From positions 130,496-194,495 of the forward strand of contig JAUICN010000005.1 in assembly GCA_030427835.1 (NCBI GenBank): DNA of 64,000 bases, written 5' to 3'. The notes under the pieces were generated by a model. The model made no database searches. It had not been told where the DNA came from and saw only the letters and a list, made by a program, of their open reading frames with translations. The DNA is from Polyangia bacterium. GTDB taxonomy: Bacteria > Myxococcota_A > Polyangia > Polyangiales > JAUICN01. Made by a program: the position numbers and the translations under genes. Positions 10,753-38,089 of the stretch are shown here, in pieces; within the stretch, counting starts at the first letter, position 1, and each line of letters starts with the position of its first letter.

Positions 10753-10772
10753 GCGGGGGCTCACAGCTCCCC

Positions 10773-21196: not shown

Positions 21197-22603
21197 ATGG
21201 CGAACGAATACGATGTGATTGTCATTGGTGGGGGGCCGGGCGGTTACGTGGCGGCCATTCGGGCACGTCAACTTGGGTTGACCGCGCTCTGTGTGGAAAA
21301 GGAATCCGTGGGAGGCGTGTGCCTCAATTGGGGTTGCATTCCTTCCAAGGCATTGATTGCTGCCACGGGGCTGGTTGAAAAACTGAAACATGCCGAGGTC
21401 ATGGGCGTACAGAGCCAGGGCGTGTCCATCGACGTGGCCAAAATGCAGGAGTGGAAGGGTGGCATTGTCAAAAAGCTCACCGGCGGTGTAAGTAGCTTAC
21501 TCAAGGGCAATGGCGCGGACATCGCCATGGGCACAGCACAACTTACGGGATCCAACACTCTGAAGGTTACTGGCAACGACGGAAACACAACCGACTACCG
21601 TGCCAACAAGGGCATCATTGTGGCCACGGGTACCGAGGTCATTCGTATCCCCGGGTTTGAGCCGGACGGCAAAACCGTCATCACCGCCCGGGAAGCCGTT
21701 AGCCTCACCGAAGCCCCCAAGAACATGGTGCTCATTGGCGGCGGCATCATTGGCCTTGAATTGGGCAGCGTGTACCAGAAACTCGGGACCAAGCTCACCA
21801 TTGTGGAGCTCACAGACAACTTGCTTCCGGGAACGGACCCTGACCTGGTAAAGGTCGTGGAAAAGAAGCTCAAGAAGGGTGGCGCCGAAATCCTTACCGG
21901 TGCGAAGGCCACAGGTTGCAAGGTTTCAGGAAAAACCGCCACCGTCACTGTGGACATTGGCGGCAAAGAAAAATCCTTCAAGGCAGACAAGGTCCTGGTG
22001 GCAGTTGGCTTCAAACCCAACTCCAAGAACCTGGGTCTGGAGAAGGTGGGGGTAGCCCTGGACGAACGTGGCCACATCCAGATCGACAACAAGTTCCAAA
22101 CCAACGTTGCAGGTATCTACGCCATCGGCGACGTGTGTGGCACTCCCTACCTTGCCCATAAGGCCTCCAAGGAGGGTGAGATTGCCGCCGAGGTGATCGC
22201 CGGTCACGCCTCTGAACGGGATTGGAAAGCCATGCCGGCGGCTATCTTTACCGACCCGGAAATTGCAACGGTGGGCCTGAGCGAGACTGAAGCCAAGGCA
22301 CAGGGCAAAAAGGTGCAAATCGGAAAGATGCCCTTTGCGGCCTCCGGCCGTGCCATGTCGGTACTGGAAACCGATGGCTTTGTGAAAACCATCATCGACG
22401 CCGAAGACCACCGTGTACTTGGGGTGGCCATTGTGGGTCCGGAAGCCAGTGACCTCATCAGCGAATCTGCCCTGGCCATGGAAATGTGCGCCTTTGCAGA
22501 AGATGTGGCCCTGACCATCCACCCCCATCCCACCCTGGGTGAGGCTGTCATGGAATCCTTCAAGCATTCGCTCAAGGAAGCCATCCACGTCATGAATCGG
22601 TAG
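21197..22603 (+). CDS. lpdA: Dihydrolipoyl dehydrogenase
   Basis: VIVIGGGPGGYVAAIRA, redox-active GGVCLNWGCIPSK, and C-terminal HPHPTLGE. Confidence 0.9.
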   Translation: MANEYDVIVIGGGPGGYVAAIRARQLGLTALCVEKESVGGVCLNWGCIPSKALIAATGLVEKLKHAEVMGVQSQGVSIDVAKMQEWKGGIVKKLTGGVSSLLKGNGADIAMGTAQLTGSNTLKVTGNDGNTTDYRANKGIIVATGTEVIRIPGFEPDGKTVITAREAVSLTEAPKNMVLIGGGIIGLELGSVYQKLGTKLTIVELTDNLLPGTDPDLVKVVEKKLKKGGAEILTGAKATGCKVSGKTATVTVDIGGKEKSFKADKVLVAVGFKPNSKNLGLEKVGVALDERGHIQIDNKFQTNVAGIYAIGDVCGTPYLAHKASKEGEIAAEVIAGHASERDWKAMPAAIFTDPEIATVGLSETEAKAQGKKVQIGKMPFAASGRAMSVLETDGFVKTIIDAEDHRVLGVAIVGPEASDLISESALAMEMCAFAEDVALTIHPHPTLGEAVMESFKHSLKEAIHVMNR

Positions 22604-22612
22604 CGGCTGCAC

Positions 22613-23224
22613 TTGACCACCCGCGACATCCAAAGCCTAGAGAACATTCGGTGGCACCGCACGGAGGTTTCCCGCAAGGACCGGGAGACCTTGCACGGGC
22701 ACCGGGGGCTGGCGGTGTGGTTCACGGGCCTGTCTGGATCCGGTAAAAGCACCATCGCCAACGCATTGTGCGCGCAGCTACACGCGAGGGGGATCTCCAC
22801 CTACCTGCTGGATGGAGACAACCTCCGCCATGGGTTGAACTCAGACCTCGGTTTCTCTATGGAAGACCGGGAAGAAAACATGCGCCGTGTTTCCGAGGTG
22901 ACTGGGTTGATGGTGGATGCGGGTCTGGTCGTCATCACGTCGCTCATCTCTCCCCTGCGCCAGCAACGGGAACAGATCCGAACAAAACTCAACCGAGATG
23001 AGGCGAATCGATTTGTGGAGGTGTTCGTGGACACCCCCCTGGAAGTTTGTGAACAGCGTGACCCAAAAGGCCTCTACGCAAAGGCCCGCAGCGGAGAGAT
23101 TGAAGATTTTACGGGCATCTCATCCCCTTTTGAGCCACCTCTGCACCCGGAAGTACACGTAGACACCACCGTGATGGACGTAGACACCTGTGCGCAGCAC
23201 ATCCTTACCAAGCTTCCAGTCTAG
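22613..23224 (+). CDS. cysC: Adenylylsulfate (APS) kinase
   Basis: [18 protein letters not shown]-loop, [11 protein letters not shown] and [13 protein letters not shown] start at 22613. Confidence 0.85.
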
Positions 23225-23269
23225 ATAGCCTACGTCGACGGCAAAGCCCAAGGGCGGTACATTGTCGTC

Positions 23270-24001
23270 ATGAACAGTCAGCCCAAGTGGCTACAACAGG
23301 CGGGAGCATGGACCACAAGCCTCGTGCGTTCCGGCGCCAAAACCCTTGGAACCGGCCTACTGTCCGGCCCACCCCAGGAGCTTTGGGACGCCCTGAAAAC
23401 CAAGGTGAGCACCTTGGGGCCCGTGATCACCATCTCCCCCCAGCAGCTTCGAACCTGGGTCCTTTCCCACGACCAGGTCACCGCCGGTACCGTAGAAATC
23501 GACCACACCGGTATCCGCGTGGACGCAGACCTCACCCACGGACAAAAAAGCACTTCCCACCCGGCCCCCTTCTCCCAGTTCCTCATCCATCCCACACCCT
23601 GCTCCTTCGCCCCAGGCGGCTCGAAGGAAATGGGGTTCGAGCTCGAAACAAACAGCGAAACTGCATATTCAGCGTACTTCCCCCTAGCCACGCACCTCAT
23701 CCAAAACATCCTCGCCCATACTGCCAAAGAAGTAGGACGCATACTCGCCATCCCCCACCCCCCCTCTCACAACGTCCAACCTGGGACAATCGATATTCAT
23801 CGTCACCACACCCCTATCGCCATCACAGGAGACCTCCGCACTTTCCCCCCCCTAAGGAACCTCGCAGGCCCAAGAGCTCAACTCTTCGACTCATTGGTGA
23901 TCGCTGGCCAAAATATCAATCCGCAAGGCCTCACCCTCCGCCTAACTCCAGCATGGCTCCACCATCACAAAACACCCAGCTCCAAGAATGACCCAGGTTG
24001 A
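23270..24001 (+). CDS. Hypothetical protein (C-rich coding strand)
   Basis: 243-codon ORF with strong C-ending codon bias. A second same-strand frame (23287-23991) is also open but encodes P/R/H-rich low complexity. The stop lies inside a copy of the dispersed motif. Confidence 0.5.
   Translation: MNSQPKWLQQAGAWTTSLVRSGAKTLGTGLLSGPPQELWDALKTKVSTLGPVITISPQQLRTWVLSHDQVTAGTVEIDHTGIRVDADLTHGQKSTSHPAPFSQFLIHPTPCSFAPGGSKEMGFELETNSETAYSAYFPLATHLIQNILAHTAKEVGRILAIPHPPSHNVQPGTIDIHRHHTPIAITGDLRTFPPLRNLAGPRAQLFDSLVIAGQNINPQGLTLRLTPAWLHHHKTPSSKNDPG
23990..24001 (+). repeat. Dispersed motif copy GACCCAGGTTGA
   Basis: Exact 12-mer. Overlaps the stop codon of 23270-24001. Confidence 0.8.
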
Positions 24002-24153
24002 GTCAGATCTAGCGGCCACATAGCCAGCCAGTAGCAGCAAACTCCCAACCCCAACATCGAGGTCGCTCGGCCACCTCTTACGCCAAAACCGGATCGTAGT
24101 TTCAATCCTGCGTCGCTTGAAGGATACACAATTGGGCAGTCGTTTCGCCCTTT

Positions 24154-24165
24154 GACCCAGGTTGA
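24154..24165 (+). repeat. Dispersed motif copy GACCCAGGTTGA
   Basis: Exact 12-mer, 3' of the Y1 transposase gene. Confidence 0.8.
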
Positions 24166-24373
24166 TTTGGATTGGAGAGACATAATAGTACGAAACACGT
24201 TGTGTCTTTTTCCAAACAAGCGAAGGGCCTACGTTTTTCCCCGACAGGTGGAGAGGCCTTTTTGGCCGCCTCAGCGTGGAAATACTGCTTTGTTTTCCTT
24301 CAAGCTCGGCAAAAAGCAGATCGGTGCACTAGCGACGAATCGCATCTGGAAGAATGCTGTACGAAGGAAGCGG

Positions 24374-25252
24374 CTAGGTTGCCACTACGGCGCCGCCGTA
24401 GTGAACCATCCACCAAGTCCCTTCAGGAAAGGGGGTGGAGAAATGACCGTCTCGAAAAAGAAGCAGTGCAGTGCGATACGCGCGCCGGAACCCACGAAGC
24501 GCGACCTGGGCCTTGAGATAGAGCTCCCGGTGTTTGGTGGAGAATGTGGGTATCCGTTGGGGTGTGGGCGATGGCTCAGTGGTGGGGCAGGAAGTGACGG
24601 GAGTCTGTCGGACACGCTCCATACCTTGGAAAGGTCCGCGTACCTGGCGGCGCCGAGTTTCGATGAGGCGCTCTAGGGTCGAGACGACCTCATCACGATC
24701 CCAATCCCGGAGCGCTGGGGGCATGGTGAGTACGAGCCGTGCAGGAATAGGCCAGGTCACTTTCTTGAAAAAGGAGGGGACCTGCAGCCCCTCTGCGAGC
24801 ACAGTTCCCAACTGCTCGGGTGTCGTAGAAAGACCGTCCCATTGCTCAGGACGGGCAACAAGCCCTGCGGTCACGGGATTGAGGGTCATGTAGGAAAGCT
24901 TGTCGAGCACGGCTTCCGGGGTGAGTAGCGGCATGGCGTGATAGGAGACACTCGGGTCAAACACGGTGCCCCCAATCCGATGGTAGAACTTCGTTGCGAG
25001 CGCCAGATGTCGGTTGAAGCGCCTCATGAACTCGGGAAGTCGGCCAGAAGTGTCGGTAATCATCAGGTGGTAGTGGTTACTCATGAAGGTGAATCCGTGG
25101 ACTTCCATGCCGCACATATGGGCAAACACAGCCAGTAAAAAGAGAGCCACAGTATTGAGCCAGGTGCTTGGGCGCAGGTAGAATCGCCGTTCCGTACAGC
25201 GGCGGCCGACCATGTATGTGGTGCCGGGAAGGATTTGACGGGGCATTGTCAT
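24374..25252 (-). CDS. HUH/Y1 tyrosine transposase-like protein (IS200/IS605 TnpA-like, REP-associated RAYT-type) with a C-terminal extension
   Basis: HUH motif in FMSNHYHLMI. Tyr-helix region LSYMTLNPVTAGLVARPEQW is typical of COG1943/Y1_Tnp proteins. Confidence 0.75.
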   Translation of the reverse strand: MTMPRQILPGTTYMVGRRCTERRFYLRPSTWLNTVALFLLAVFAHMCGMEVHGFTFMSNHYHLMITDTSGRLPEFMRRFNRHLALATKFYHRIGGTVFDPSVSYHAMPLLTPEAVLDKLSYMTLNPVTAGLVARPEQWDGLSTTPEQLGTVLAEGLQVPSFFKKVTWPIPARLVLTMPPALRDWDRDEVVSTLERLIETRRRQVRGPFQGMERVRQTPVTSCPTTEPSPTPQRIPTFSTKHRELYLKAQVALRGFRRAYRTALLLFRDGHFSTPFPEGTWWMVHYGGAVVAT

Positions 25253-25296
25253 GACCCCTTATCGGTCACAGCACCCTCCCAGTTGCTTCCTTTTTT

Positions 25297-25308
25297 CAAC
25301 CTGGGTGG
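25297..25308 (-). repeat. Dispersed motif copy (reverse orientation) CACCCAGGTTGA
   Basis: tcaacctgggtg on the plus strand, between the transposase start and the hemH start. Confidence 0.75.
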
Positions 25309-25373
25309 TTTTCAACCGTTGGTTTCTACACTTGAGCTTGCGAAGTTGCTGGCGGCATCCCAGATATCCTGCA

Positions 25374-26459
25374 GTGAATACGTCTGCTGATTCGATTCTA
25401 TTGCTGTCTTTTGGGGGGCCAGAACGCTCCGAGGAAGTCATGCCCTTTTTGCGCAATGTGGTGAAGGGGCGGGATGTTCCGGAAGAACGGCTCCAGGAGG
25501 TGGCAAAGCACTACATGCGCCACGGGGGAAGTAGCCCGATCAACGAACGAAACCGATTGTTTAAGAAAACACTGGGGGCGGAGCTCAGAAAGTACGGCAT
25601 CGAGCTTCCGGTCTATTTGGGGAACCGAAACTGGCATCCGATGCTCGCTGATACCCTGGCATCCATGTACACTGACGGCTGCCGAAATGCCCTAGTGTAT
25701 GTCACGTCAGCCTACGGTTCTTATTCGGGTTGCCGGCAATACAGCGAGGATATGGTCAAGGCACAGCAGGAACTTGTGGACCGTCAACCTGGGTCGAATC
25801 TCGAGCTTCGCAAACTGCGCATATTTTACGATCATCCTGATTTTGTCTCCGCCACGGTGTCTCGGGTGCACGATGCGTTGCAGCTCGCCACACCACGCAT
25901 CCCAACGCGGTTGGTATTTACCGCCCACAGTATTCCCTGTGCCATGGCAGAGAGTTCTCCCTATGTGGCCCAACTTGAGGAAACCGCGGGCCTCGTGTCC
26001 AACGCGATTTTGAGCAATTCTTCGATTATTCTGCGAGATTGGGATCTGGTTTTTCAGAGCCGTAGTGGCCCTCCGCAGGTACCCTGGTTGGAACCCGACG
26101 TGACCGATCATATCCGCATTCTCGCTGATCAAGGAGTCAAACAGATCGTACTTTGCCCACTGGGCTTCTTAACTGACCATATGGAAGTGATTCACGATCT
26201 CGACACAGAAGCCCGTGAAGTGGCCGAGAGTTTCGGGCTTAAGTTAGTTCGGGCCAAAACCGTAGGCGCACATCCTCATATGGTCCGAATGGTCCGAAAG
26301 TTACTCCAGGAGCAACTGCAAGGTGCCCCAGCCGAACGCGCGAGTGATCTTCACACGAGACTTCCACACTGCACACCCACATGCTGCTCTCCCCCGAGGC
26401 GCCCGCGGCTACCGACTGGAACTTCCGATCCTAGCAGGCCAGTCTCTGCCCTTAACTAA
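25374..26459 (+). CDS. hemH: Ferrochelatase
   Basis: ILLLSFGGPERSEEVMPFLRNV, NRNWHP, FTAHSIP and HMEVIHDLD motifs. The likely start is GTG 25374. The ORF-track start at 25251 would abut the transposase start. Confidence 0.85.
   Translation: MNTSADSILLLSFGGPERSEEVMPFLRNVVKGRDVPEERLQEVAKHYMRHGGSSPINERNRLFKKTLGAELRKYGIELPVYLGNRNWHPMLADTLASMYTDGCRNALVYVTSAYGSYSGCRQYSEDMVKAQQELVDRQPGSNLELRKLRIFYDHPDFVSATVSRVHDALQLATPRIPTRLVFTAHSIPCAMAESSPYVAQLEETAGLVSNAILSNSSIILRDWDLVFQSRSGPPQVPWLEPDVTDHIRILADQGVKQIVLCPLGFLTDHMEVIHDLDTEAREVAESFGLKLVRAKTVGAHPHMVRMVRKLLQEQLQGAPAERASDLHTRLPHCTPTCCSPPRRPRLPTGTSDPSRPVSALN
25784..25795 (-). repeat. Dispersed motif copy (reverse orientation) GACCCAGGTTGA inside the hemH coding sequence
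   Basis: tcaacctgggtc is an exact reverse complement of the 12-mer. Confidence 0.6.
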
Positions 26460-26496
26460 AAAATGCTATTCTATGCCAACGATTTAGGGGCGTCCC

Positions 26497-27399
26497 CTAG
26501 ACCCGTACGGAGTTGCGAATACCCACAAGACGTTCACAGGTTTCCCAGAGTTGCCTTCCCAACTCTCGATCGTGAACAAGAGGCGCAGGCTCTTGCCGCT
26601 CCAACCCTCGGAAATAAAGGCCGGTTTCATTGGTGAGGGCGGGGGAAGTCGCAACGTGGACAGGACCCTCAGCGGCCACTCGCGGGGAGCGATAGATGGG
26701 CCGCAACACAGTGCGGGCAACGGCTCGAGCGAGCAACGATGCATGTCGCAGGCTTTCTGTACGCACAAGCCCAGGGTCCACGCAATGGGCTGTGACACCA
26801 CTTCCCCGAAGTCGCCGAGCCAGCTCCATGGTGAACAGTACGCGGCCAAGCTGAGCCTGTTCAATTGCTTGCTTTGCTGAATAGGCGCGTCGCTCAAAGC
26901 TCAGGTCCTCAAAGTCGACCACGCCGCTGCGATGCTTCTGGCTGGTGACGACTACCACTCGTGATGGGGTCGCGCCCCTCAGTAGGTCAAGCCACAGATG
27001 GGTGGCCAAAAACGGCCCTAGCAAGTCGATCGCAAGTGTCCGCTCGTGCCCCTCATCGGTAATGGTTTTCTCGCTCGGGGCGGAGCCCGTACAATGCACA
27101 AGCACGTCCAGGCGGGCAAATGTGCTGTCCAATTCCTTGCAGGCGGTTCGTACAGAAGCCATGGAGGAAATATCGCATTCCAAAATATGTACACGATGGT
27201 TCCCTGTGCGTCGTACGATCGATTCGCGAGTTGCCACAGCCGACCGAACATTGCGACAGGCGAGTACGACGATTGCACCCATGGAAGCAAGGTCGTTGGA
27301 AATGGCTCGGCCCAAACCACGGTTGCCCCCTGTGACTACGCATACTCGCCCTCGCATCGACGCCTGACCCCGTTTCGGCTTTGCCATCATGTCCTTCAT
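26497..27399 (-). CDS. Short-chain dehydrogenase/reductase (SDR) family oxidoreductase
   Basis: VCVVTGGNRGLGRAISNDLA (TGxxxGxG). ATG 27399 (MKDMMAKPK) was chosen because the longer ORF would overlap trpS. Confidence 0.8.
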   Translation of the reverse strand: MKDMMAKPKRGQASMRGRVCVVTGGNRGLGRAISNDLASMGAIVVLACRNVRSAVATRESIVRRTGNHRVHILECDISSMASVRTACKELDSTFARLDVLVHCTGSAPSEKTITDEGHERTLAIDLLGPFLATHLWLDLLRGATPSRVVVVTSQKHRSGVVDFEDLSFERRAYSAKQAIEQAQLGRVLFTMELARRLRGSGVTAHCVDPGLVRTESLRHASLLARAVARTVLRPIYRSPRVAAEGPVHVATSPALTNETGLYFRGLERQEPAPLVHDRELGRQLWETCERLVGIRNSVRV

Positions 27400-27439
27400 T
27401 TCACACGAGTTCGCGATGGGCCCGCCATGGGGGTACGGC

Positions 27440-28561
27440 CTAGGAACCCTGTTGCTTGCTGCCTGGGCGGCGGGAGGTTTTGCGGCGCATGTTTTCAGTG
27501 GTTTTTCGGGCACCAGATCCACCAATGCCCCTACGGCTGACACCCACGGCGAAACGTACGCGCTCCATGGTCTCAAGCGCGATGGTCCGAGCACGTTCGG
27601 CACCGTCTTGCAGAATCTCGTCGATCACTTCGGTGTTGGTGCGTAGTTGATGGTAAGTGTCTCGAAACGGGCCCAGTTCCTGTTCAAGTAGATCTGCTAA
27701 CTCCTGTTTAGCGTGGCCCCAGCCATACCCTCCTTCGGCCAACTTCTGGCGCATGGAAAGGGCATCCTCGGGGGTGGCCATGAGTTTGTAGAGTTCAAAA
27801 ACGGTATTCCCGACCGCCTCTTTCGGTACCTCCAGAGGTTCTGAGCCAGTCTTGATACCGCCCAGTACCTTACGGGTGGCCTTGGGTTGAGAAAAAAGTG
27901 GAACCGTGTTTCCACGGCTCTTACTCATCTTTTCTCCATCGGTTCCAGGAACGACGGGCGCGTCAGTGATTAGCCCCTCCGGCACCACAAGGATGTCGTC
28001 CTGAAACGTATGGTTGAAGCGAATTGCCACGTCACGTGCCACTTCTAGGTGTTGCTGTTGATCCTTTCCCACGGGTACCACATGGGCACCGTACAAAATG
28101 ATGTCCGCTGCCATCAGCAACGGGTAGTTGAACACACCAGCGTTGACGGTACCCCCTTTTGTTGGACCGTCCTTGGTCGTACTCCCTTTGGCCTGAGCTC
28201 CTTTGGCCTGAGCTCCCTTGGCTAGGGCGTCCTTGTAGGCATGGCCCCGTTCCAACTGGCCCGTGGCAACAAGGCACGAGAAAATCCAAGCCAGTTCGAA
28301 CACCTCCGGTATGTCCGATTGCCGGTACAGCATCGTGGTGCGTGGGTCCACCCCGCACGCAAGCCAGGTCGCGGCCACATCGTAGACGTATTGGGTAAGC
28401 AGATCTGGGTCCCGGAGGCTTGTGAGCGCATGGTAGTCTGCGATGAAAAACAGGGTTCGGTAGGATTCCGTAAGCCTTACGGCGGTACGGATCGCGCCAA
28501 GGTAGTTTCCAAGGTGAGGAGTTGCGGTGGGTTTGATCCCGGTAAGTGCTATCTGGGGCAC
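27440..28561 (-). CDS. trpS: Tryptophan--tRNA ligase
   Basis: [16 protein letters not shown] (HIGH-type), YPLLMAADI and KMSKSRGN motifs. The GTG at 28561 gives the N-terminus [12 protein letters not shown]. The longer ORF overlaps the divergent gene. Confidence 0.85.
28186..28223. repeat. In-frame 15-bp tandem duplication (ctttggcctgagctc x2.5) inside trpS
   Basis: Read directly. Encodes [13 protein letters not shown] within a low-complexity insertion. Confidence 0.85.
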
Positions 28562-28651
28562 GGTGCTCCAGTGTGGCGCCAAGCCCCCCCGGATGGCAAC
28601 CCTCCACCGGCGACTTGGTCCACCCGCAGGTTGTTCTGCTACGTTCTTGCC

Positions 28652-29116
28652 ATGAGCGAATCTCGACCTTTTCGTATTCTCGGTATTCAACAAATTGCGG
28701 TAGGGAGCCCGGACAAATCCCACCTCCGTACCCTTTGGATAGATTTGCTTGGGCTCACTCAAGAGGGGCAATTTAGGGAGGAAAGCCAAAATGTGGACGA
28801 GGACATCCTCGTGGTAGGGGAGGGCTCCGCTCGGGTGGAAATCGACCTAATGCAGCCCATCGACCCGGAAAAAAGCCCCAGAGTAGACAAGCCCGCGCTC
28901 AATCATGTCGGCCTATGGGTAGATGACCTTCGAAAAGCCGTGTCGTGGTTGCAAAGCAAGGGCGTTCGTTTCACTCCTGGCGGAATTAAGAAGGGAGCTG
29001 GCGGCCACGAGGTCTGTTTTATTCACCCCAAGGGCAACGAACAATCCCCCCAGGGCGGGGAAGGGGTGCTGATTGAGCTTGTCCAAGCCCCCAAACGGAC
29101 GATCGACCCGGGTTGA
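28652..29116 (+). CDS. VOC (glyoxalase/bleomycin-resistance/dioxygenase) family protein, methylmalonyl-CoA epimerase-like
   Basis: [17 protein letters not shown]...[11 protein letters not shown]...[10 protein letters not shown]. The ATG is at 28652; the ORF-track start at 28241 is antisense to trpS. Confidence 0.7.
29105..29116 (+). repeat. Variant dispersed motif GACCCGGGTTGA (one mismatch)
   Basis: Overlaps the stop codon of the VOC gene. Confidence 0.5.
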
Positions 29117-29145
29117 ACAAGTTTGAACGCAGGGATTCGTACGTT

Positions 29146-29157
29146 GACCCAGGTTGA
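29146..29157 (+). repeat. Dispersed motif copy GACCCAGGTTGA
   Basis: Exact 12-mer in the convergent intergenic region. Confidence 0.8.
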
Positions 29158-29212
29158 ATCGCGTTGATGGCCTAGATAGGCGTTTTTGCCTGTTTTTGTC
29201 CCTATCTGGATT

Positions 29213-29224
29213 CACCCAGGTTGA
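29213..29224 (+). repeat. Dispersed motif copy CACCCAGGTTGA
   Basis: Abuts the stop of the TPR lipoprotein gene at 29225. Confidence 0.75.
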
Positions 29225-31528
29225 TTACGGATCAGGGATGTGCAGGGCCTGGGCCATGGCGTATTCGTAAAAATTGACCATTTGGGTCTCTAACACTTGG
29301 GCGAAATACTGGTTGGCGGTTTGGGTTTCGTTATTTTGGAGGGCTGCGAAGGCGGCGTAGCAGTAGGCTTCTGCCCGTTCTCCGCGGTTTGAGGCTTCTC
29401 CAACCAGGGTTTCCACGGTTGTTTCACCTAGGCCGAGTCGTGCAAGGCTGCCCCACCAGGCGGCGTCGGTGCGGTGCTGTTCCAGTGCGTACAGGGCGTC
29501 TCCCTGCAGCGGTAACCCGGCCCGGGCCTGAATCGCGGCCACCCACAGGGCGAAGTACACACGCCATTCGGCTTGGAGGGCCAGTCGACGTTGGGCCTGG
29601 CGAAACACTTCCTGGGCCAGCTCTGGATCGGGCTCCGCCATTACCAGGTAGGAAAGGATCCGAGCATAGACGTCCCGGGTAGGTTCTGGGGATTGTGCGG
29701 CCACGCGAATGACGTCCCTGGCTGCCTTATGTTCACCAAGCCTGTGCAAAATAACCCCCCGCTGGGCGTGGAGTTCGGGGCTGCCGCTTGCCCCGGGAAT
29801 CTTTGTCAACGTGTTCAGGTGCTCCAACGCGATCCGGTAGGAGCGCACCGCTTCCTCCTGTCGATCTGCCAAATCCAGACTCAGGCCCATTTCCCATTGG
29901 AGGTCCGCGTTGATGCTCACCTGGGAAATACCGGTGCCTGGCATCCGGGTGGCCTGGTGGAGATATCGAAGGCTACCCTGTGCGTTGCCAAGCAATCTCT
30001 GAAGCCGTGCCATTTGCAGAACGGCGGGTAAGCTTGGTTTTTCTTCGATGCTCCGCGTGTACCACTGGATGGCTCCTTCAGCGTTGCCAGCGTTGGTTTC
30101 AAGCAAACCGAGCAGGTAGTGCAACTCCTCAGGTGCGACGGCCGGAGAAGAATCAGGCCACAGTCGCAGTCGCTCCTGCAGTATGGCTTCCGCCTTGGAC
30201 GCCAGTCGGCGCGACATGGTCGGATCTGAATCATACAAGCCCTGGGTCAACATGAGTTCCATGGCCTGCAGCGCCTCGTCGTATCCCGATTGTTCCTCGG
30301 GCATGCGTTGTACGGCCTCCATGTACCACTCTGTAGCCTGTGCAAAGTCCCGCTCCTGAGCGGCGGTGCGGGCAAGGCAGGTTACAAACCGAACGTCCCG
30401 GTCAAAGACGCGGTAGCCGTAACGGCACAGGCCCCGCCGAACGTCCAAGTGGGGTGCGTCAAACGCCTGTGCGAGTTCCAGAAGAGCCCCTGGACTTTCA
30501 CCGCTCACTTCCTTCAGCACCTGTTGCAATTCGCGCCCCCCAGGGAGGTCGTCAATGGCGGTTGCCGCAAGGTCGATCTCTCCCACCCGCAAGTAGGGAA
30601 TCGCAATACTGAGTGCCACCTGGCGCTGCAGTTGCGCGGATGGGCCGAACTCCCGGGACCGAAAAAGGCGAAAAGCACCACCACGACTTTGCATGGCTTC
30701 CATGAATAGGTTTGCACGTAGGGTTTGCAGTTCCGCGGCGTGTTCCAACACATCCATTCCAGGGGTGGCTGCCGCATGGTTGTCCCAAACGTCGGCCAGT
30801 CGAGACACGGCGCTAAACTGGTCTGGAAAGGCCTGGCGCGCTTCTACGCTCCACTCTGCCAGATGCTCGTAGCGCGTGACCCAGGGCAGCTGTGCCGGGC
30901 CCAATCGTTCGAAACGATCTGGCCTCGGTTTGGTCCGGGGCTTGTTGTTTGCGGATTCACCACCTTCAGTAGCCTCTTGCGCACGCACCAAGCTCAACAC
31001 ACGCAGGGCGGACAGCGCCCGTGCCTCGTTGCCAGACTTGGCGGCATCCAACCAGACCCGGTGGGCCAACGGGTACAAAGTGGAGGAGCCAACAAGCACG
31101 CCCGCGTACCGTTTGGATCCACGGCTCTCTGCCACATCGAGATCCGGCAGGCTAAAGTCTGCAACTCCATACCACTGGGTAGCTTCCTGAAACCAATGCC
31201 AGGTGTCTTCGATGGCCTCCCCATCCCGAACGCCACCACCACGGGTGTTGTCCAATCCACGATCCACACAATAACGCACCAGCCCATCCCGCAGAATTTC
31301 GCGAGAGCGATGGCCAACCGGCATGCCCAACCACGTGCGTGAGGACTCCAGGTAGTTGGAAGACGTGACTTCGGAACCCGCTGGGCCTAAATTCGGGTGC
31401 TCGGCACCGCGGTCCCTGCGGCCGCCACAACCGGCGGCCACGAGCAGGTGAACAGGTAGCTGAACAAGCAGCACCGCAAGTGGTACCCATCCCCTAATCA
31501 AACGAAAACGAATATTGGAAGCGCACAT
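29225..31528 (-). CDS. Large TPR-repeat lipoprotein
   Basis: ATG 31528 gives the signal peptide MCASNIRFRLIRGWVPLAVLLVQLPVHLLVAAGC. The body is helical-repeat (TPR-like) throughout. The ORF-track start at 31870 would overlap the divergent gene by about 340 nt. Confidence 0.7.
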   Translation of the reverse strand: MCASNIRFRLIRGWVPLAVLLVQLPVHLLVAAGCGGRRDRGAEHPNLGPAGSEVTSSNYLESSRTWLGMPVGHRSREILRDGLVRYCVDRGLDNTRGGGVRDGEAIEDTWHWFQEATQWYGVADFSLPDLDVAESRGSKRYAGVLVGSSTLYPLAHRVWLDAAKSGNEARALSALRVLSLVRAQEATEGGESANNKPRTKPRPDRFERLGPAQLPWVTRYEHLAEWSVEARQAFPDQFSAVSRLADVWDNHAAATPGMDVLEHAAELQTLRANLFMEAMQSRGGAFRLFRSREFGPSAQLQRQVALSIAIPYLRVGEIDLAATAIDDLPGGRELQQVLKEVSGESPGALLELAQAFDAPHLDVRRGLCRYGYRVFDRDVRFVTCLARTAAQERDFAQATEWYMEAVQRMPEEQSGYDEALQAMELMLTQGLYDSDPTMSRRLASKAEAILQERLRLWPDSSPAVAPEELHYLLGLLETNAGNAEGAIQWYTRSIEEKPSLPAVLQMARLQRLLGNAQGSLRYLHQATRMPGTGISQVSINADLQWEMGLSLDLADRQEEAVRSYRIALEHLNTLTKIPGASGSPELHAQRGVILHRLGEHKAARDVIRVAAQSPEPTRDVYARILSYLVMAEPDPELAQEVFRQAQRRLALQAEWRVYFALWVAAIQARAGLPLQGDALYALEQHRTDAAWWGSLARLGLGETTVETLVGEASNRGERAEAYCYAAFAALQNNETQTANQYFAQVLETQMVNFYEYAMAQALHIPDP

Positions 31529-32495
31529 GATCGAGAAGCCCACACTAGCGCATGCCGGTGACAAGCACGAACAACCCGACTTGAAGGTGTCATCGGCCGG
31601 ATTTGAGTTGCCCTGGTGGTCCATCATCATGCTTCCCTGGGCGGCCATTCTCGGCACACAGATGGTGGGCCTTACGTTGAGGTTGCTAGAGTTCGCTCCT
31701 GGGGCAAACCATCCGGCGTACAAGCTTGTTCTCGCCATGTCGCAGTTGGTGGCGTGGTCGGTGGTTGCCGCTTTTGGCCTTTGGCTCTCCCAACGGGAGC
31801 CCGCAAAATCGGTGGAGCCCACCGTGAGCTTGCAACGGATGCTCAGGGGGCTTTTTGCGCAGCCCACCAACGTCGCCGTTGTTGGAGTGGCTGTACTGAC
31901 CGGTTTTGCGTTGCAGTTTCCCCTCTCAAGGCTGAGTCACCTGATGCTGCCCTGGTCTTCGGCGTCCCTGGAAGATCTTCAGTTCAGGCAGCAGCTTGTC
32001 ACCTACCGCACGCCCGCAGAAGCTGTGGCCACATGGTTTGCCTTTGTGGTTGTGGCCCCGCTTGTGGAGGAGCTGCTCTTTCGCGGGGTACTTTTACGTG
32101 GGTTGCAGTCCAGGTTGGGGAGCACCGTGACACTTGTATTGACCAGTGTGGCATTTGGCGTGGTTCATGGGGCTCTGGACGCAGTCGTGTACGCCACACT
32201 CGCGGGGCTCACATTCGGGAGGGTGATGCAAAAGCAGGGCAATCTTGGGGTCACCATGGCCATGCACGCAGGTGTAAACGCAGTGCCATTGGTTCTGCAG
32301 GCTCGTTGGTGGCTCATACCCGGGTTTAACGAGCCACTGGGGCCCAGTGGCGCCCAGGACATTGCTGAAGTGTTAGATAGTCTTGAGCCCCTAGCCCCAG
32401 TGGTTTGGGTGCCGGCCACAGCCTTGGCCGTAGCTGGGATTATGTTTCTTGTAAGAAACCCAACACGTCCGACACGTCCTCTGAACTCCCAATAA
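31527..32495 (+). CDS. CPBP-family intramembrane glutamic endopeptidase (CAAX protease/Abi-like)
   Basis: VEELLFRGVLL and FGVVHG motifs with multiple TM segments. The start is uncertain: ATG 31527 sits head-to-head with the TPR gene, and ATG 31629 is an alternative. The 3' end overlaps the fbp 3' end by 56 nt. Confidence 0.6.
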   Translation: MIEKPTLAHAGDKHEQPDLKVSSAGFELPWWSIIMLPWAAILGTQMVGLTLRLLEFAPGANHPAYKLVLAMSQLVAWSVVAAFGLWLSQREPAKSVEPTVSLQRMLRGLFAQPTNVAVVGVAVLTGFALQFPLSRLSHLMLPWSSASLEDLQFRQQLVTYRTPAEAVATWFAFVVVAPLVEELLFRGVLLRGLQSRLGSTVTLVLTSVAFGVVHGALDAVVYATLAGLTFGRVMQKQGNLGVTMAMHAGVNAVPLVLQARWWLIPGFNEPLGPSGAQDIAEVLDSLEPLAPVVWVPATALAVAGIMFLVRNPTRPTRPLNSQ

Positions 32496-33465
32496 ATAGG
32501 GGTGTTCGTTGGTGAAGTACCTCGGGTTCCACATCCAGAATTCGTTGGGATCCGTCGGAAGCCGCACCGCCTGCGGCCTCCACAAGAAACGCAAACGGCG
32601 CCGCTTCGTACAGAAGCCTGAGCTTGCCCTCGGGCTTGTCTTCGCTGCCGGGGTAGCAAAACACCCCTCCCCGAAGCAGGGTGCGGTGAAGGTCCGCCAC
32701 CATGGCCCCAATGTACCGGTGGCCATAGGCCTTCTTGCCCTCCTCGGGCTTCTTTATCCAGTCTGCCCACCGACGCATGCCCGGGACCCAGGAGTGGTAG
32801 TGGCCTTCGTTGATGGAATAAATGGAACCCCGTTTTGGGATGCGAATGTTGTCGTGGGACAGAAAGAACTCGCCCACCGATGGATCGAACGTGAACCCAT
32901 AGACACCGTTGCCGGTGGTGTACACAAACATGGTGGACGAACCGTAGATGGCGTATCCGCTGGCGACCAAGTCACGGCCAGGTTGCAGGCAATCTTCCAG
33001 GGTGCCTCGCCCCTCGCCAGGTGTGCGGCGTTTGTAGATACTGAAAATCGTGCCGATGGAAGCGTTTACATCGATGTTGCCGGAGCCGTCCAGGGGATCA
33101 AACATGAGCACGTACTTTCCGGCGGGCTCTTCCAACGGAACGGGGATCACCTCTTCCACTTCTTCGCTTGCCATGACGCACACGTGGCCGCCGCTCTCCG
33201 CGCACTTGACCAAGGTATCGTTGGAGAACTGGTCCAGCTTAGCCACCATCTCGCCCTGCACGTTGGTTTCACCCGTGAGCCCCAACACACCCGCAAGCCC
33301 TGCGCGGTGCACACGGCTGTGAATGATTTTCACCGCAAGCGCGATTTGCTGAAACAGGCCCGTAAAATTCCCTGAGGCACCAGGTGATGCGCGCTGCATG
33401 TCGAGCACGTGCCTTGCAAGGCTACTCCCCGGTTGAACGGGCCCCGCAGGCCGCCACGAGGCCAT
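32440..33465 (-). CDS. fbp: Fructose-1,6-bisphosphatase class 1
   Basis: FDPLDGSGNIDVNASIGTIFSIY, GYAIYGSSTM and YIGAMVADLHRTLLRGGVF motifs. ATG 33465 gives a 341-aa product, typical for this family. The ORF-track start at 33786 is an over-extension. Confidence 0.88.
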   Translation of the reverse strand: MASWRPAGPVQPGSSLARHVLDMQRASPGASGNFTGLFQQIALAVKIIHSRVHRAGLAGVLGLTGETNVQGEMVAKLDQFSNDTLVKCAESGGHVCVMASEEVEEVIPVPLEEPAGKYVLMFDPLDGSGNIDVNASIGTIFSIYKRRTPGEGRGTLEDCLQPGRDLVASGYAIYGSSTMFVYTTGNGVYGFTFDPSVGEFFLSHDNIRIPKRGSIYSINEGHYHSWVPGMRRWADWIKKPEEGKKAYGHRYIGAMVADLHRTLLRGGVFCYPGSEDKPEGKLRLLYEAAPFAFLVEAAGGAASDGSQRILDVEPEVLHQRTPLFIGSSEDVSDVLGFLQET

Positions 33466-33583
33466 TGAATCCCTTGCCACTGAGTTTCTACCCGCCGAGC
33501 GTTCCATGATCCGCGGTTTAGCAGGTCTAGCGCGCTTTGCCCGGATGCCAGCCTCCCGGACGCCAGTCCAGCCGAGTACCAGT

Positions 33584-35422
33584 CTAGGAAGCGTCGCGGC
33601 TGTACCGAACCTCGGCGGACAACGCGTCGCCCGACCAGGTGAGCTCGGTGATGCGCACGACCCTAGAATCAGAATCTGGGGTTTGCTCCAGTTCCACCAC
33701 AAACCGCATGGAGTTGGAAAGCAGTCGCTCCGCATTCCTATCCTGACCCGCCGCGCCCACACCCATGCGGGCCACAAGGCCAGCAATCAGAGATTCCTGC
33801 GAACCCAATCGCAGGGCCATGCCTGCCACGTTACCGTCGGCAATACCGTCCAAGAACGTCAGCGCGTGAAGCAAATCATCAGACTGCAATCCATCCACAA
33901 TGAGCCGCTTTGCCCCAAACCGTTGGGATTCCGTGAGTACCTGCCGAAGTGCGGTGCCCGGGCGCCCGTCTCGGCAAAAGCCCAGCGTAATCATCTCCTT
34001 GCCAGAGCGGACCGAACCTGGATTTCCACTTACACAGAGCCAGGGGTCACTGGGATTCGCCAGGTTTGCAAGACCACCCACCACCGTGGATACCCCCGTT
34101 CCCGAGGGGCCCAGCACCATCACCGACGCCCGATCCTGGACCGCCTGTTGCAGCACGCCCCGGGCCTTATCATCCCAAATGCCCCGGCGTTCCATTTCAG
34201 GCACGGTCATCGGATCCCCAACAGCCCGCACGTGCAGTACTGGGCCGTCATAGGCCACAGGTTCACGGATGAACGTCACCCGAAGGCCCGGAGCCACCAA
34301 GGCTTCCTGCACTGGAGCCTCTCCAGAGAGGACACGCCCTGCCCGTTGAAAAAGGCGTTCTGCCACGATTTCCAAGGCGCGATTGGAGGAAAACCGAGTG
34401 GATTGGGCTTCCGGGCCCTTGCCCCAGTCCACCGTGAGGCGGCGTGTGCCCTCTGCGGTGGCTTCCTTGAGACCATCCTTGGCCAACATCGGATCCAATG
34501 GGCCAAGCCCCACGGCCTCCCGGAGGGCCGCTCCAAGCAATTGGTTGGGGTCCTCCCCGTCCAGGCGCCCTTCGCTTTCAAGTCGTTGCACCGCCTGCCG
34601 AATGGACTGCTTGATACTCTCCCGGACCGAGGTGGTCTTCAGGGCGGCCGTTGCGTGAAGGTTGTGAAAATGGGAGACGTACTCCAGTACACCCGCCAGT
34701 CCACGCCCGGTGATCTCCACGGGCCCCTCCGGGGGAATACTGGAGGTCGCGCTGCTGTTGGCGTGGGCCACATCGCCGGGGGCGTCTGCAGTTCGTACGG
34801 GGCGAACGGTTGCGCTGGGCCCACTTGCAGAACTGGGTCCACTTGCGGAACTGGGTCCACTTACAGAACTGGGCCCACCCGCGGAAGCGCCGGGGCGTGA
34901 CACCCCTAAGTTTGAGACAGGAGACCGCGCCGGGGGTGCAGCCGTCATGGCGGGTGCGGGGGGTGGCGCAGAAGGCCGACCCGGAGGTGCGGAACCGGGG
35001 CTTCCCGGGCGTACGGCGCCAGGTCGCGCAGACCCAGGGGCACCGTAGGAAGCGGAGCCCTCGGGGCCCCCTTGTCTACGCACCGGCGCGTTGGGCGGAG
35101 CCTCCGATGGTGGGGAAGGCCGCTCGCTTGCCACGCCCTCTTCGATGGTGAGAACAAAATCTCCGATGTAAACCTTGTCGCCTGCCTTCACCACAAGGGG
35201 GGAGGTGATGCGCCGACCGTTGACGTACGTACCGTTCGTGCTTTTGAGGTCCACGACGATGAAGCGGTCATCCTTGAGCACAATGCGGGAATGGCGCTTG
35301 GAAACGTTGCCCTTGGGCAGGATCACGTCGTTGCCCTGGACACGACCGATCGTCACTTCCGACTTGTCAAAGTCCAAGCGCCGTTGGGCACCGCCCTTTT
35401 CCGTAATGATCACCGCGTACAT
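33584..35422 (-). CDS. FHA-domain protein fused to a CpaF/VirB11-like (T2SSE) ATPase-fold domain with degenerate nucleotide-binding motifs
   Basis: N-terminal FHA domain (TIGRVQGNDVILPKGNVSKRHSRIVL...STNGTYVNG), then a Pro/Ser/Gly linker. The C-terminal domain carries LGPLDPML. Its Walker A-like GPSGTGVST (34085-34111) lacks the invariant Lys. Confidence 0.75.
   Translation of the reverse strand: MYAVIITEKGGAQRRLDFDKSEVTIGRVQGNDVILPKGNVSKRHSRIVLKDDRFIVVDLKSTNGTYVNGRRITSPLVVKAGDKVYIGDFVLTIEEGVASERPSPPSEAPPNAPVRRQGGPEGSASYGAPGSARPGAVRPGSPGSAPPGRPSAPPPAPAMTAAPPARSPVSNLGVSRPGASAGGPSSVSGPSSASGPSSASGPSATVRPVRTADAPGDVAHANSSATSSIPPEGPVEITGRGLAGVLEYVSHFHNLHATAALKTTSVRESIKQSIRQAVQRLESEGRLDGEDPNQLLGAALREAVGLGPLDPMLAKDGLKEATAEGTRRLTVDWGKGPEAQSTRFSSNRALEIVAERLFQRAGRVLSGEAPVQEALVAPGLRVTFIREPVAYDGPVLHVRAVGDPMTVPEMERRGIWDDKARGVLQQAVQDRASVMVLGPSGTGVSTVVGGLANLANPSDPWLCVSGNPGSVRSGKEMITLGFCRDGRPGTALRQVLTESQRFGAKRLIVDGLQSDDLLHALTFLDGIADGNVAGMALRLGSQESLIAGLVARMGVGAAGQDRNAERLLSNSMRFVVELEQTPDSDSRVVRITELTWSGDALSAEVRYSRDAS
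34817..34888. repeat. In-frame 18-bp tandem repeat x4 (gggYccacttRcRgaact)
   Basis: Encodes the GPSS[VA]S repeats in the FHA-protein linker. Confidence 0.85.
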
Positions 35423-35685
35423 GCGTTACCAAACCGTGTCACAACGTGGCCCCCCAGGCCATCCCCAGGCAAACCACACGCAACGGCCCGCAGTCTCCCC
35501 CAGAACCCCCCCAGGAGTCCAAAAACATTCATATGCCTGAGATAACCCGGTATCTCCGTTCTACCGGTTATTGCAGCAATTCGCTTCGCGCGGTTCTCAA
35601 GGGAGCACTTTGGCCACAGCCCTCCTAAGAACACACTCTGAAAACGTACGATTTGCTTGTCTCGAGAAAGGTCGACAGCCGAAAA

Positions 35686-36594
35686 TCAACCGCCGTGCTG
35701 TGGGGGCAGGTCGCCTGAGGGCAGGTTGCTGGAGGAGATGCCGGCAGCTGGAAGGTCGGCGGTGGCGAGGTCTGGGTTGATGAGGTGACCGGTGCTCTGA
35801 CTGGGTGGCGGCTGGCTGGGCAGTGACAACGCAGCTTCCAGTTTTTCCAGGCGTGTGGCGAGCCGTTCGTTCTCAGCCCGCAGGTGGCGGATCATTTCGG
35901 AAACGGGGTCTGGCAAGTTTGCGTGATCCAAGGTCACGTCGAAGGACGAGCGGGTTTCGCCAGCGCCCTTTACCACGCGGCCAGGTACCCCCACCACGGT
36001 ACCGTTTTGTGGCACGGGGCGAATGACCACAGAGCCCGAACCGATACGTGCGCCATCCCCTACCTGGATGTGGCCCAGGATGCAGGCGTTGCTTCCCACC
36101 ACCACCTTGGCGCCCAGTTCCGGGTGCCGGGCTTCGCGGCCCATGGAGGTTCCTCCAAGCACCACCCCCTTGTACAGCACACAGCCATCTCCAACCTTTG
36201 CGGTCTCCCCAATCACGACACCCATGCCGTGGTCGATGAACACACCCTGGCCGAGCTTTGCACCTGGGTGAATCTCCACCCCAGAAAGAAAACGGTTTGC
36301 GTGGGACACCATCCGCGCCGGAAGCCCCAGCTCACGCTTCCAAAGGCTGTGCGCTACCCGGTGCATCCAAATGGCATGTAGGCCAGGGTAGGTCAGCACG
36401 ATCTCGAGCTTGCTGCGGGCAGCCGGGTCGTGTTCCAACACCGCATCCACATCGCGCACGTAGCAACGTAGCCGCGCGCGCAGCTTGCCCCAGGGGGTCT
36501 TCTTTGTGGAAGCTTCCGCACAGTCCGGGGTGGGGGGGGTGACATGAACCGGGTCCATGGGGGAGAACCTAGCAACCCGGGGTCCCAATGTCAT
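35686..36594 (-). CDS. cysE: Serine O-acetyltransferase with a long C-terminal extension
   Basis: LEHDPAARSKLEIVLTYPGLHAIWMHRVAH and the hexapeptide region IHPGAKLGQGVFIDHGMGVVIGETAKVGDG. ATG 36594 is preceded by GGGAGG. There is a tail of about 95 aa with a coiled-coil-like segment. Confidence 0.85.
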   Translation of the reverse strand: MTLGPRVARFSPMDPVHVTPPTPDCAEASTKKTPWGKLRARLRCYVRDVDAVLEHDPAARSKLEIVLTYPGLHAIWMHRVAHSLWKRELGLPARMVSHANRFLSGVEIHPGAKLGQGVFIDHGMGVVIGETAKVGDGCVLYKGVVLGGTSMGREARHPELGAKVVVGSNACILGHIQVGDGARIGSGSVVIRPVPQNGTVVGVPGRVVKGAGETRSSFDVTLDHANLPDPVSEMIRHLRAENERLATRLEKLEAALSLPSQPPPSQSTGHLINPDLATADLPAAGISSSNLPSGDLPPQHGG

Positions 36595-36642
36595 CGTTTG
36601 CGCCTCCCTTGCTCCCGTGCCTGGGGCTGTTAGCGTTTGGAA

Positions 36643-37491: not shown

Positions 37492-37541
37492 CAATTCCGG
37501 CCTTGGTAGCGTGATTTCCCTAAAGATTGTAGACTGGGAGA

Positions 37542-37778
37542 ATGACAGCCACTGCAAAGCAAGTGCTGGAAGATGCTCTTGCCCTTCCGGAAGAAGATCG
37601 CGAGAAGGTGGCCGAACTTCTGTTGGTGAGTCTTGACAGGAACCATCTGCAAAATGTTGAAAAAGAATGGAATGCGGAAGCCATGCGGCGCCTCCGTGAT
37701 GCCGAAGAAAACCCTGAAAATGGAAGGGAATGGTCAGAGGTTTACGGAGAGTTGAAGGCTAGTTTTTCTTCTCAGTGA
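37542..37778 (+). CDS. Putative addiction-module antitoxin component
   Basis: 78 aa, with LALPEEDREKVAELLLVSLD...EKEWNAEAMRRL. Precedes the ParE/RelE toxin gene and overlaps it (GTGA). GGGAG SD. Confidence 0.7.
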   Translation: MTATAKQVLEDALALPEEDREKVAELLLVSLDRNHLQNVEKEWNAEAMRRLRDAEENPENGREWSEVYGELKASFSSQ

Positions 37779-38089
37779 GGGTTCGATTCAAAACAGAAGC
37801 TTTAGACGAACTTGAGCGAGCTGCAGAATACTATGAGGACAAACAGCCTGGACTGAGTTTACAGTTTATTGACGCGATCCACGAAACGATTCGGTTCGCG
37901 GTTGAACATCCACGACTAGGTATTCGGGTAGGGGTATCTCCAAGATCCAATATGCTCAGAAGGTATCCTGTAAACCGGTTCCCGTTCATGGTTTACACCA
38001 GTCTGATCGGTGAAGTTCTAGAAGTTCTAGCCGTTGCCCACACGTCAAGGAGACCCGGATATTGGGGCGGCAGACTAGGCGGCTCTTAG
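37775..38089 (+). CDS. Type II toxin-antitoxin system ParE/RelE-family toxin
   Basis: 104 aa. AEYYEDKQPGLSLQFIDAIHETIRFAVEHP...RRYPVNRFPFMVYT...VLAVAHTSRRPGYW is typical of plasmid-stabilisation ParE-like toxins. Confidence 0.75.
   Translation: MRVRFKTEALDELERAAEYYEDKQPGLSLQFIDAIHETIRFAVEHPRLGIRVGVSPRSNMLRRYPVNRFPFMVYTSLIGEVLEVLAVAHTSRRPGYWGGRLGGS

Follow-up and report, generated by a model that had tools for sequence, protein, structure and literature searches.

A motif clustered around a RAYT-like Y1 gene in a Polyangia bacterium is probably the terminal repeat of a TIRtron-type unit

A short motif, [GC]ACCCAGGTTGA, is clustered around a gene for a putative tyrosine transposase in a 64-kb stretch of DNA from a Polyangia bacterium (contig JAUICN010000005.1; the whole stretch is here called the window). 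The predicted gene product belongs to the Y1/HUH class and resembles the tyrosine transposases associated with repetitive extragenic palindromic (REP) elements, the RAYTs. The motif probably serves as cognate terminal repeat for a Y1 unit of the kind called a TIRtron, in which a RAYT-like gene is flanked by terminal inverted repeats (TIRs). The 12-mer would then be the conserved core of a TIR of about 20 nt that closes a 1.15-kb unit (24154-25307) at both ends, and the sole gene of the unit would encode a single-strand-DNA nuclease-ligase of the RAYT-like class. In more than 100 loci, the motif accompanies genes of this Y1 family at strict spacing and with strict polarity.

Results

How often the motif occurs in the window was determined by searching both strands for SACCCAGGTTGA with at most one mismatch, and 100 dinucleotide shuffles of the window served as the control. 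Nine matches were found against 1.04 +/- 1.01 in the shuffles, none of which (0/100) reached 9. Six exact copies of [GC]ACCCAGGTTGA and one copy with a single mismatch (GACCCGGGTTGA, at 29105+) lie within 5.4 kb; four of the exact copies have the GACCC... form (23990+, 24154+, 29146+, and 25784-), and two have the CACCC... form (29213+ and 25296-). Moreover, ACCCAGGTTGA ranks first among all 11-mers of the window by number of copies, all six of which lie inside 23990-29224, and the 58 kb of the window outside the cluster contains no exact copy. The clustering of the motif is non-random. An initial annotation of this DNA had said as much and had placed the copies where we find them, apart from small shifts: two reversed copies, given as starting at 25297 and 42913, are real but start at 25296 and 42912.

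Other matches are less secure. Degenerate copies are present at 23777- (GTCCCAGGTTGG) and 42912- (TACCCAGGTTGG), whereas one-mismatch matches at 20625 and 47207 look like chance. Two 10-mers, at 22026 and 23450, are probably chance as well, and the one at 22026 encodes the conserved NLGLE of lipoamide dehydrogenase. When the contexts of all copies were aligned, no similarity common to all of them extended beyond the 12-mer, and only an occasional GAT[CT] head was seen. That head, which is part of the extended family consensus given below, precedes three of the copies that lie loose, that is, away from the ends of the unit (25784, 29105, and 29213).

How the copies are arranged around the Y1 gene is regular. 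The gene lies on the minus strand, the copies on its 5' side (25296 and 25784) share its orientation, and those on its 3' side (24154 and 23990) are inverted. Thus, the bracketing of the gene by inverted copies that the initial annotation described is real. The same bracket surrounds a second Y1 copy from the same sample (L002), which is 76% identical in protein and 73% identical in DNA and has different neighbor genes; the tetranucleotide correlation of its contig with the window is 0.93, compared with 0.45 to 0.69 for other genomes. There, a co-oriented copy of the motif lies 137 nt upstream and an inverted copy lies 207 nt downstream (209 nt downstream in the window), and the similarity of the flanks to those of the window is otherwise lost. 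We note that a 1.26-kb Logan contig with the Y1 gene (L001, from ERR3428547), equal to window positions 25306-24046, begins a single base within the left end repeat. Such a start hints that the sequence to the left of that repeat is not unique in ERR3428547, either by a second context or by a polymorphic junction.

The bracket also recurs in distant relatives. Loci were collected by a search seeded with a four-sequence alignment, and 64 loci from genomes, with homologs 23 to 43% identical, were scanned for the core ACCCAGGTTG with one mismatch allowed. Core density was 0.985 per kb for co-oriented copies up to 600 nt upstream and 0.89 per kb for inverted copies up to 600 nt downstream, against about 0.01 to 0.10 per kb farther out and 0.08 to 0.17 per kb on the opposite strand of the 600-nt flanks. 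No core was found inside the Y1 genes of these 64 loci. A hold-out set consisted of 52 metagenome loci (identity of at most 42%) that had not been used for deriving the pattern, and the pattern ACC[CG]A[GC]GTTG was fixed beforehand. Upstream of the gene, 31 copies were co-oriented and 2 were inverted; downstream, none was co-oriented and 40 were inverted. An association of motif and Y1 gene at homologs elsewhere, which had been proposed as a test in advance, is therefore present in both sets.

The core ACC[CG]A[GC]GTTG is only the center of a longer repeat, for the extended consensus AGATCCGACCSASGTTGGCG is conserved also outside the imposed pattern. The outer edge of the repeat has a median distance of 172 nt from the start codon upstream of the gene and of 245 nt from the stop codon downstream, and in most homologous loci the repeat is confined to these two unit ends. 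The 3' spacer is poorly conserved across the family, and the repeat within it is nearly invariant. Neither a conserved structure nor a small open reading frame (ORF) was found in the 3' spacer, where only the repeat stands out.

Spacing of this kind bears on whether the motif could be an operator, that is, a site at which a regulator, possibly the C-terminal domain of the Y1 protein itself, controls the Y1 gene and its neighbors with no role in DNA rearrangement. A divergent promoter region does hold one copy, 43 nt ahead of the start codon; there is partial dyad symmetry in the core ACCYRGGT; and TTGA-N6-TTGA is present in two copies. An operator would not explain, however, why an inverted copy is found about 245 nt past the stop codon, at a conserved distance in dozens of loci, or why the repeats are the precise limits of duplicated 1.24-kb units, described next. 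Moreover, some copies lie within a coding sequence or where convergent genes end, places in which a promoter would not be expected, and a scan of the window for promoters and terminators was blank at the motif copies. We find an operator function quite improbable. The initial annotation had offered a transcription-factor site made of direct repeats as its second choice, and that choice is contradicted by the same downstream copy and the same exact unit ends; the TTGA repeated at 10-nt spacing that it invoked holds for only two of the seven copies.

The duplicated units come from two Anaeromyxobacter-type genomes, each of which carries four Y1 units that are 97 to 99.7% identical within the genome. 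The shared sequence runs from repeat to repeat, from -133 to +1103 relative to the start codon (1.24 kb), and its left repeat is TCCCCCCC-NN-CCCCAGAGG, with the inverted partner of that sequence on the right. Because the shared sequence starts and stops at the repeats, it constitutes an insertion-sequence-like unit with TIRs and is more than a gene with motifs nearby. The four units of one genome (L010, L011, L013, and L047; positions of about 9868-11103 in each locus) and the four of the other (L019, L020, L016, and L017) occupy orthologous sites with flanks 92 to 94% identical, and units of the two genomes are about 90% identical whichever pair is compared. Identities of this pattern indicate that all four copies have been retained for a long time and have evolved in concert through gene conversion.

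Elsewhere in the family, the repeat has multiplied beside the gene. Tandem arrays of four to seven copies adjoin the Y1 gene in L003, L005, L014, L040, and L087. In Sorangium sp. So ce1128 (L009, CP181432), arrays of GACCCGACCCAGGTTG-based repeats with a period of 20 to 25 nt occupy five intergenic spaces around the gene over 12 kb (2944-3375, 9625-9875, 11290-11502, 12683-12771, and 14470-14710), and every upstream array is co-oriented with the gene while every downstream array is inverted, out to 7 kb. Together with the window copies at 23990, 25784, and 29105-29224, the arrays agree with the claim that copies linked to the Y1 gene also occur away from it, as single copies, dimers, or clusters. 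In L095, six cores with an 18-nt period (GCCCAGGCCACCCACGTTG) stand in the "wrong" orientation at 394-502 (-1525 to -1417 relative to the gene). That array might lie in a coding repeat, the period being a multiple of three.

The first choice of the initial annotation was that the motif is a REP element. In a classical system of REPs or REPINs (REP doublets that form hairpins), a hairpin palindrome is dispersed genome-wide in high copy number and is mobilized in trans by a single-copy domesticated RAYT. Much of what we describe resembles such a system: the protein is structurally closest to TnpA-REP and carries the class 2 Y...NP motif, inverted copies bracket the gene, copies lie at gene 3' ends and in a convergent spacer, the Sorangium arrays occupy five intergenic spaces around the gene, and the Anaeromyxobacter copies are vertically inherited. 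The repeats, however, do not fold. When 61-nt segments around the copies were folded as DNA on both strands, with 200 shuffles each, z scores ranged from +0.39 to -1.41, and 18 to 127 of the 200 shuffles folded at least as well; an inverted-repeat search found no stem at the motif copies. Extending the flanks in search of an imperfect palindrome, a check that had been suggested along with the REP reading, likewise produced no palindrome and no significant fold. The GTAG or CGTC head is absent from the aligned contexts of all copies and from the consensus AGATCCGACCSASGTTGGCG. Within the DNA covered, the 64 kb of the window and a further 11 kb of the source genome, no exact copy lies outside the 5.4-kb cluster, and most homologous loci have the repeat at the two unit ends only. 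Finally, several genomes hold multiple near-identical copies of the gene, unlike typical REP-associated RAYTs, and the family model for REP-associated enzymes scores the protein far below its cutoff, as given below. With no hairpin, no head, and inverted terminal repeats, the arrangement is of the TIR type (TIRtron, with its enzyme called TIRYT) and not of the REP/REPIN type. We regard a classical REP system as unlikely.

The protein itself is recognizably a Y1/HUH enzyme. Its HUH residues are H60 and H62, its tyrosine motif is Y121xxxNP, and a C-terminal extension of about 150 amino acids follows. Among 30 aligned sequences, H58/H60, Y119, N123, and P124 (P0001 numbering) are invariant, and the tyrosine motif reads YMTLNP. 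Pfam gave no match to the 292-amino-acid protein at the default threshold, Y1_Tnp falling below it, and the NCBIfam model REP_Tyr_transpos gave a weak full-length match of 35.3 bits, below its cutoff of 80. A family profile search, however, reaches ISDra2 TnpA and E. coli TnpA-REP. An AlphaFold (AF2) model of the protein has a pLDDT of 93, and its best Foldseek match in the PDB is 4er8_A, which is E. coli TnpA-REP (E value of 5.7e-6; target TM-score of 0.72), followed by the ISDra2 and IS608 transposases. The two motifs and this structural match uphold the RAYT-like assignment of the gene made at the outset. The C-terminal 150 amino acids had no Pfam helix-turn-helix (HTH) domain (Bac_DnaA_C, HTH_23, or HTH_28) in 30 members, even at an E value of <=1, and the model of that domain had no fold match in the PDB.

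The family is widespread and maintained. Ratios of nonsynonymous to synonymous substitution (dN/dS) were 0.08 to 0.22 for the family genes and 0.08 for the window gene compared with the L002 copy, and by this measure of coding sequence the Y1 proteins are under purifying selection. A third close copy, P0003, is 73% identical. Homologs are about 300 amino acids long (family length of 290 to 300), the few with taxon labels are from Polyangiaceae and Anaeromyxobacteraceae metagenome-assembled genomes, and JGI often names them "RayT." An exhaustive profile search returned 1,777 representatives of 50%-identity clusters at an E value of <=1e-30. Judged from such hits, the subfamily is large and common in myxobacteria, and it has no Pfam or NCBIfam model of its own.

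Some loose copies coincide with changes in host genes. Exactly where the 25784 copy lies, the ferrochelatase (HemH) of the window is four residues longer (DRQP-GSNL-ELRKLR) than 115 of 119 homologs in alignments, which lack these residues. The local hemH sequence CAACCTGGGTCGAATCT matches the full-length right-end consensus of the family, CAACCTCGGTCGGATCT, over about 17 nt. If the conserved Pro-Glu is taken as retained, GGGTCGAATCTC would be the inserted piece. Placement of the indel is ambiguous, however, and three or four other homologs also have insertions in the same loop; the hemH copy is suggestive, but not proof, of an in-frame insertion of end sequence. In the VOC/glyoxalase protein, the domain ends at residue 282 of 291, and the 29105 copy contributes the final residues and the stop codon, which lies nine residues past the domain. 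The loose copies look like copied ends, and we put the chance that the Y1 enzyme made them at about even. The hemH insertion and the VOC stop codon would mean that copies of the ends can remodel host coding sequences.

The genes around the cluster are listed with the motif copies in Table 1. The initial annotation had put several copies exactly at gene 3' ends, which is correct for 29114-29116, the stop of a real VOC gene, and for 29213-29224, which abuts the TAA of the TPR gene. The third case, 23999-24001, is unproven because the ORF that would end there (23270-24001) has no homolog among 5.8 billion clusters, no Pfam match, and no gene call at these coordinates. That ORF would encode 243 Pro/His-rich amino acids and lies in a very C-rich stretch, with a GC skew of -0.26 over 23000-23999. 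We considered whether "DPG-stop" might be a signal at the level of protein and rejected the idea, as only two ORFs end in this way, one of them unverified, and most copies are noncoding. An origin of the motif in a tRNA fragment or a known RNA was also rejected, since no tRNA gene and no Rfam family was found in the window. Motif copies delimit the whole 108-nt spacer (29117-29224) that separates the convergent VOC and TPR genes, and within it are a third copy and a stem of 7 bp, AGATAGG/CCTATCT, whose long loop is rich in T. The spacer may be a small composite insert that took the place of the original one.

Table 1. Positions of the Y1 unit, the motif copies, and the neighboring genes in the window
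Feature	Position	Strand	Remarks
Whole unit: end repeat, Y1 gene, inverted end repeat	24154..25307	-	1,154 bp
Y1/HUH tyrosine transposase-like gene	24374-25252	-	292 aa; public gene call starts at 25246
Left (5') end repeat, CACCCAGGTTGA	25296..25307	-	Co-oriented with Y1 gene, 43 nt from ATG
Right (3') end repeat, GACCCAGGTTGA	24154..24165	+	Inverted; 208 nt between repeat and stop codon
Second right-end-oriented copy	23990..24001	+	Starts 164 nt outside unit; its TGA ends orphan ORF 23270-24001
Left-end-oriented copy in ferrochelatase gene	25784..25802	-	12-mer at 25784-25795; extended match GAGATTCGACCCAGGTTGA; at 4-codon in-frame insertion
Variant copy, GACCCGGGTTGA	29105..29116	+	GATC before it; encodes DPG end and stop of VOC/glyoxalase gene
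Loose copy, GACCCAGGTTGA	29146..29157	+	Within 108-nt spacer of convergent genes
Loose copy, CACCCAGGTTGA	29213..29224	+	GGATT before it; abuts stop of TPR gene (29225-29227, -)
Degenerate copy, GTCCCAGGTTGG	23777..23788	-	"Wrong" orientation for its side; family membership uncertain
APS kinase	22613-23224	+	
Orphan ORF	23270-24001	+	Gene-like codon usage
Ferrochelatase (hemH)	25440-26459	+	Public gene call
Short-chain dehydrogenase	26497-27603	-	
Tryptophanyl-tRNA synthetase (TrpRS)	27440-28789	-	
VOC/glyoxalase protein	about 28650-29116	+	
TPR protein	29225-31870	-	

The cluster also lies where the base composition of the window changes. GC skew is positive at the left of the window and negative at the right, with the sign change around 22000-38000 and the maximum of the cumulative skew at about 22-30 kb. 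Many genes on the right are on the plus strand, and thus gene orientation alone does not explain the skew, which could reflect a replication terminus or an old inversion. Because the cluster sits at the sign change and its copies have a defined polarity, the motif might be a chromosome-maintenance site of the terminus, akin to the polar sequences Ter or KOPS (FtsK-orienting polar sequences). The motif, however, flanks Y1 homologs at many chromosomal positions, such as four sites over 6 Mb in one Anaeromyxobacteraceae genome, and the Sorangium site lies at 13.1 Mb of 16.3 Mb. Moreover, the polarity of the copies follows the Y1 gene rather than the skew of the window, and no dif-like site was found in the window with a consensus that is proteobacterial. 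A maintenance site is, in our estimate, highly improbable.

The window has other repeats as well. Unrelated tandem repeats at 3787-3848 and 34815-34886 have periods of 15/30 nt and 18/36 nt, respectively, and as these are multiples of three, they are probably coding repeats. The TrpRS gene contains a 24-residue low-complexity insertion that corresponds to a 15-nt tandem repeat at 28185-28222. A 15-mer on the minus strand, TGGGGCAGCCTTGCA, is common to the distant sites 2485-2499 and 29441-29455.

Discussion

How a TIRtron-type unit of this family might work can be outlined. The Y1 enzyme would recognize the repeat at each end of its unit, and because the ends are inverted, the same sequence would be presented on opposite strands. 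It would nick and rejoin DNA by way of Tyr121, with a metal held by His60 and His62, and this activity would move or copy the unit. More often, perhaps, the end sequence alone would be copied, giving rise to tandem arrays by the gene and to loose copies close by, whether between genes, at the ends of genes, or, in one case, in frame within hemH. We infer binding, the position of cleavage, and an enzymatic origin of the loose copies.

Several points weigh against a TIRtron-type unit with such an enzyme. Recognition and cleavage are drawn by analogy with TnpA-REP and IS608. To our knowledge, TIR-associated Y1 enzymes of the TIRYT type have been described by sequence survey only, and the HUH Y1 enzymes that we know to have been characterized recognize hairpins, whereas no hairpin is detectable at these repeats. 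Of the flanks, only 25 of 101 on the upstream side and 35 of 104 on the downstream side have the strict pattern; in the rest of the family, the ends have diverged (as in CCCCAGAGG or GACCGAGAGAAG) or were not detected. Four copies at orthologous sites in two Anaeromyxobacter species argue against frequent transposition, and the window unit, with no near-identical second copy and its nearest relative 73% identical in DNA, is unproven as a recently mobile element. In the three copies at 29105-29224, the orientation is away from the Y1 gene, which breaks the polarity rule seen elsewhere. Finally, the TIR motif GGGGWSAS is common to the majority of published TIRtron examples (PMC3733652), whereas the consensus here is AGATCCGACCSASGTTGGCG, and only TGGGTC[AG] on the other strand resembles the published motif. 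The nearest sequences to GGGGWSAS are TGGGTCAA on the complementary strand of the window and GGGGTCGG at the Anaeromyxobacter right end, neither of which fits.

We speculate, more tentatively, that these proteins form a large, uncurated myxobacterial Y1/HUH subclass that acts as REPIN-RAYT systems do, though its repeat, of about 20 nt, forms no hairpin. The subclass would be vertically inherited and semidomesticated, with ends copied alone into arrays, spacers, gene termini, and genes, and with gene copies kept at fixed sites across speciation and homogenized by gene conversion. This proposal has perhaps a minority chance of being correct, but were it true, an HUH enzyme would recognize DNA without hairpins. 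The family offers an entry point to HUH enzymes that act on non-hairpin ends, as it combines a conserved 20-nt candidate substrate, a fixed architecture, a confident structural model, and multicopy examples in Anaeromyxobacter. For annotation, it would account for one type of short repeat and tandem array found between genes in myxobacteria.

How the window unit compares with known systems depends on which feature is compared. A REPtron joins a REP, or the bacterial interspersed mosaic element (BIME) or REPIN built from it, to a RAYT/TnpA-REP gene (E. coli YafM, PDB 4ER8; Nunvar 2010; Bertels and Rainey 2011; Messing 2012, PMC3479197). It supplies the closest solved fold, and in both cases, inverted short repeats bracket the gene, the repeat also occurs apart from the gene and often at gene 3' ends, and inheritance appears vertical, here in Anaeromyxobacter. 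Unlike a REPtron, however, the unit has no palindrome, hairpin, or GTAG head, and its repeats are clustered locally rather than dispersed in hundreds of copies, as far as 64 kb shows. The arrays of the family are direct and tandem rather than alternating in the manner of BIMEs or REPIN doublets, and some genomes have multiple near-identical copies of the gene.

The IS200/IS605 elements, with the TnpA proteins of IS608 and ISDra2, share the Y1/HUH catalytic core and the small single-gene unit. Multicopy, near-identical, sharp-ended units like theirs are seen in Anaeromyxobacter, whereas the nearest copy in the window lineage is 73% identical in DNA. The tyrosine motif differs, being Y...NP here and Y...Q there, and the ends are inverted repeats without significant hairpins rather than asymmetric ends with subterminal hairpins. 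Moreover, the protein here is twice as long, and there is no tnpB.

Closest are the units that Di Nocera, De Gregorio, and Rocco described in 2013 (PMC3733652), in which RAYT-like genes are flanked by TIRs at similar distances; the names TIRtron, for the unit, and TIRYT, for the enzyme, are theirs. Their TIRs sometimes form small families, as dimers or clusters (PMC3733652, PMC6006769). Quentin et al. (2018; PMC6006769) placed most TIRYTs in TnpA-Y1 subclass 2.1. That subclass lacks REPs, combines NH[YF]H and Y...NP motifs with a C-terminal HTH, corresponds to RAYT Group 1 of Bertels, has a median length of 238 amino acids, and is prevalent in the former delta-proteobacteria. Neither PMC3733652 nor PMC6006769 mentions myxobacterial examples, and no later use of the terms TIRtron and TIRYT was found in the literature searched. 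The family differs from subclass 2.1 in that its proteins are about 290 to 300 amino acids long, against the median of 238, and in that the C-terminal 150 amino acids match no Pfam HTH or PDB fold. It agrees with TIRtrons and TIRYTs in the RAYT-like Y1/HUH gene with NH[YF]H and Y...NP motifs; in short, non-hairpin TIRs at a roughly constant distance from the coding sequence; in repeats that also occur as dimers, clusters, and small families, with few copies per genome; and in the former delta-proteobacterial prevalence stated for subclass 2.1. Judged by sequence, the window unit is a TIRtron/TIRYT arrangement of a distinct myxobacterial subclass, and it is neither a REP/REPIN system nor an IS200/IS605 element.

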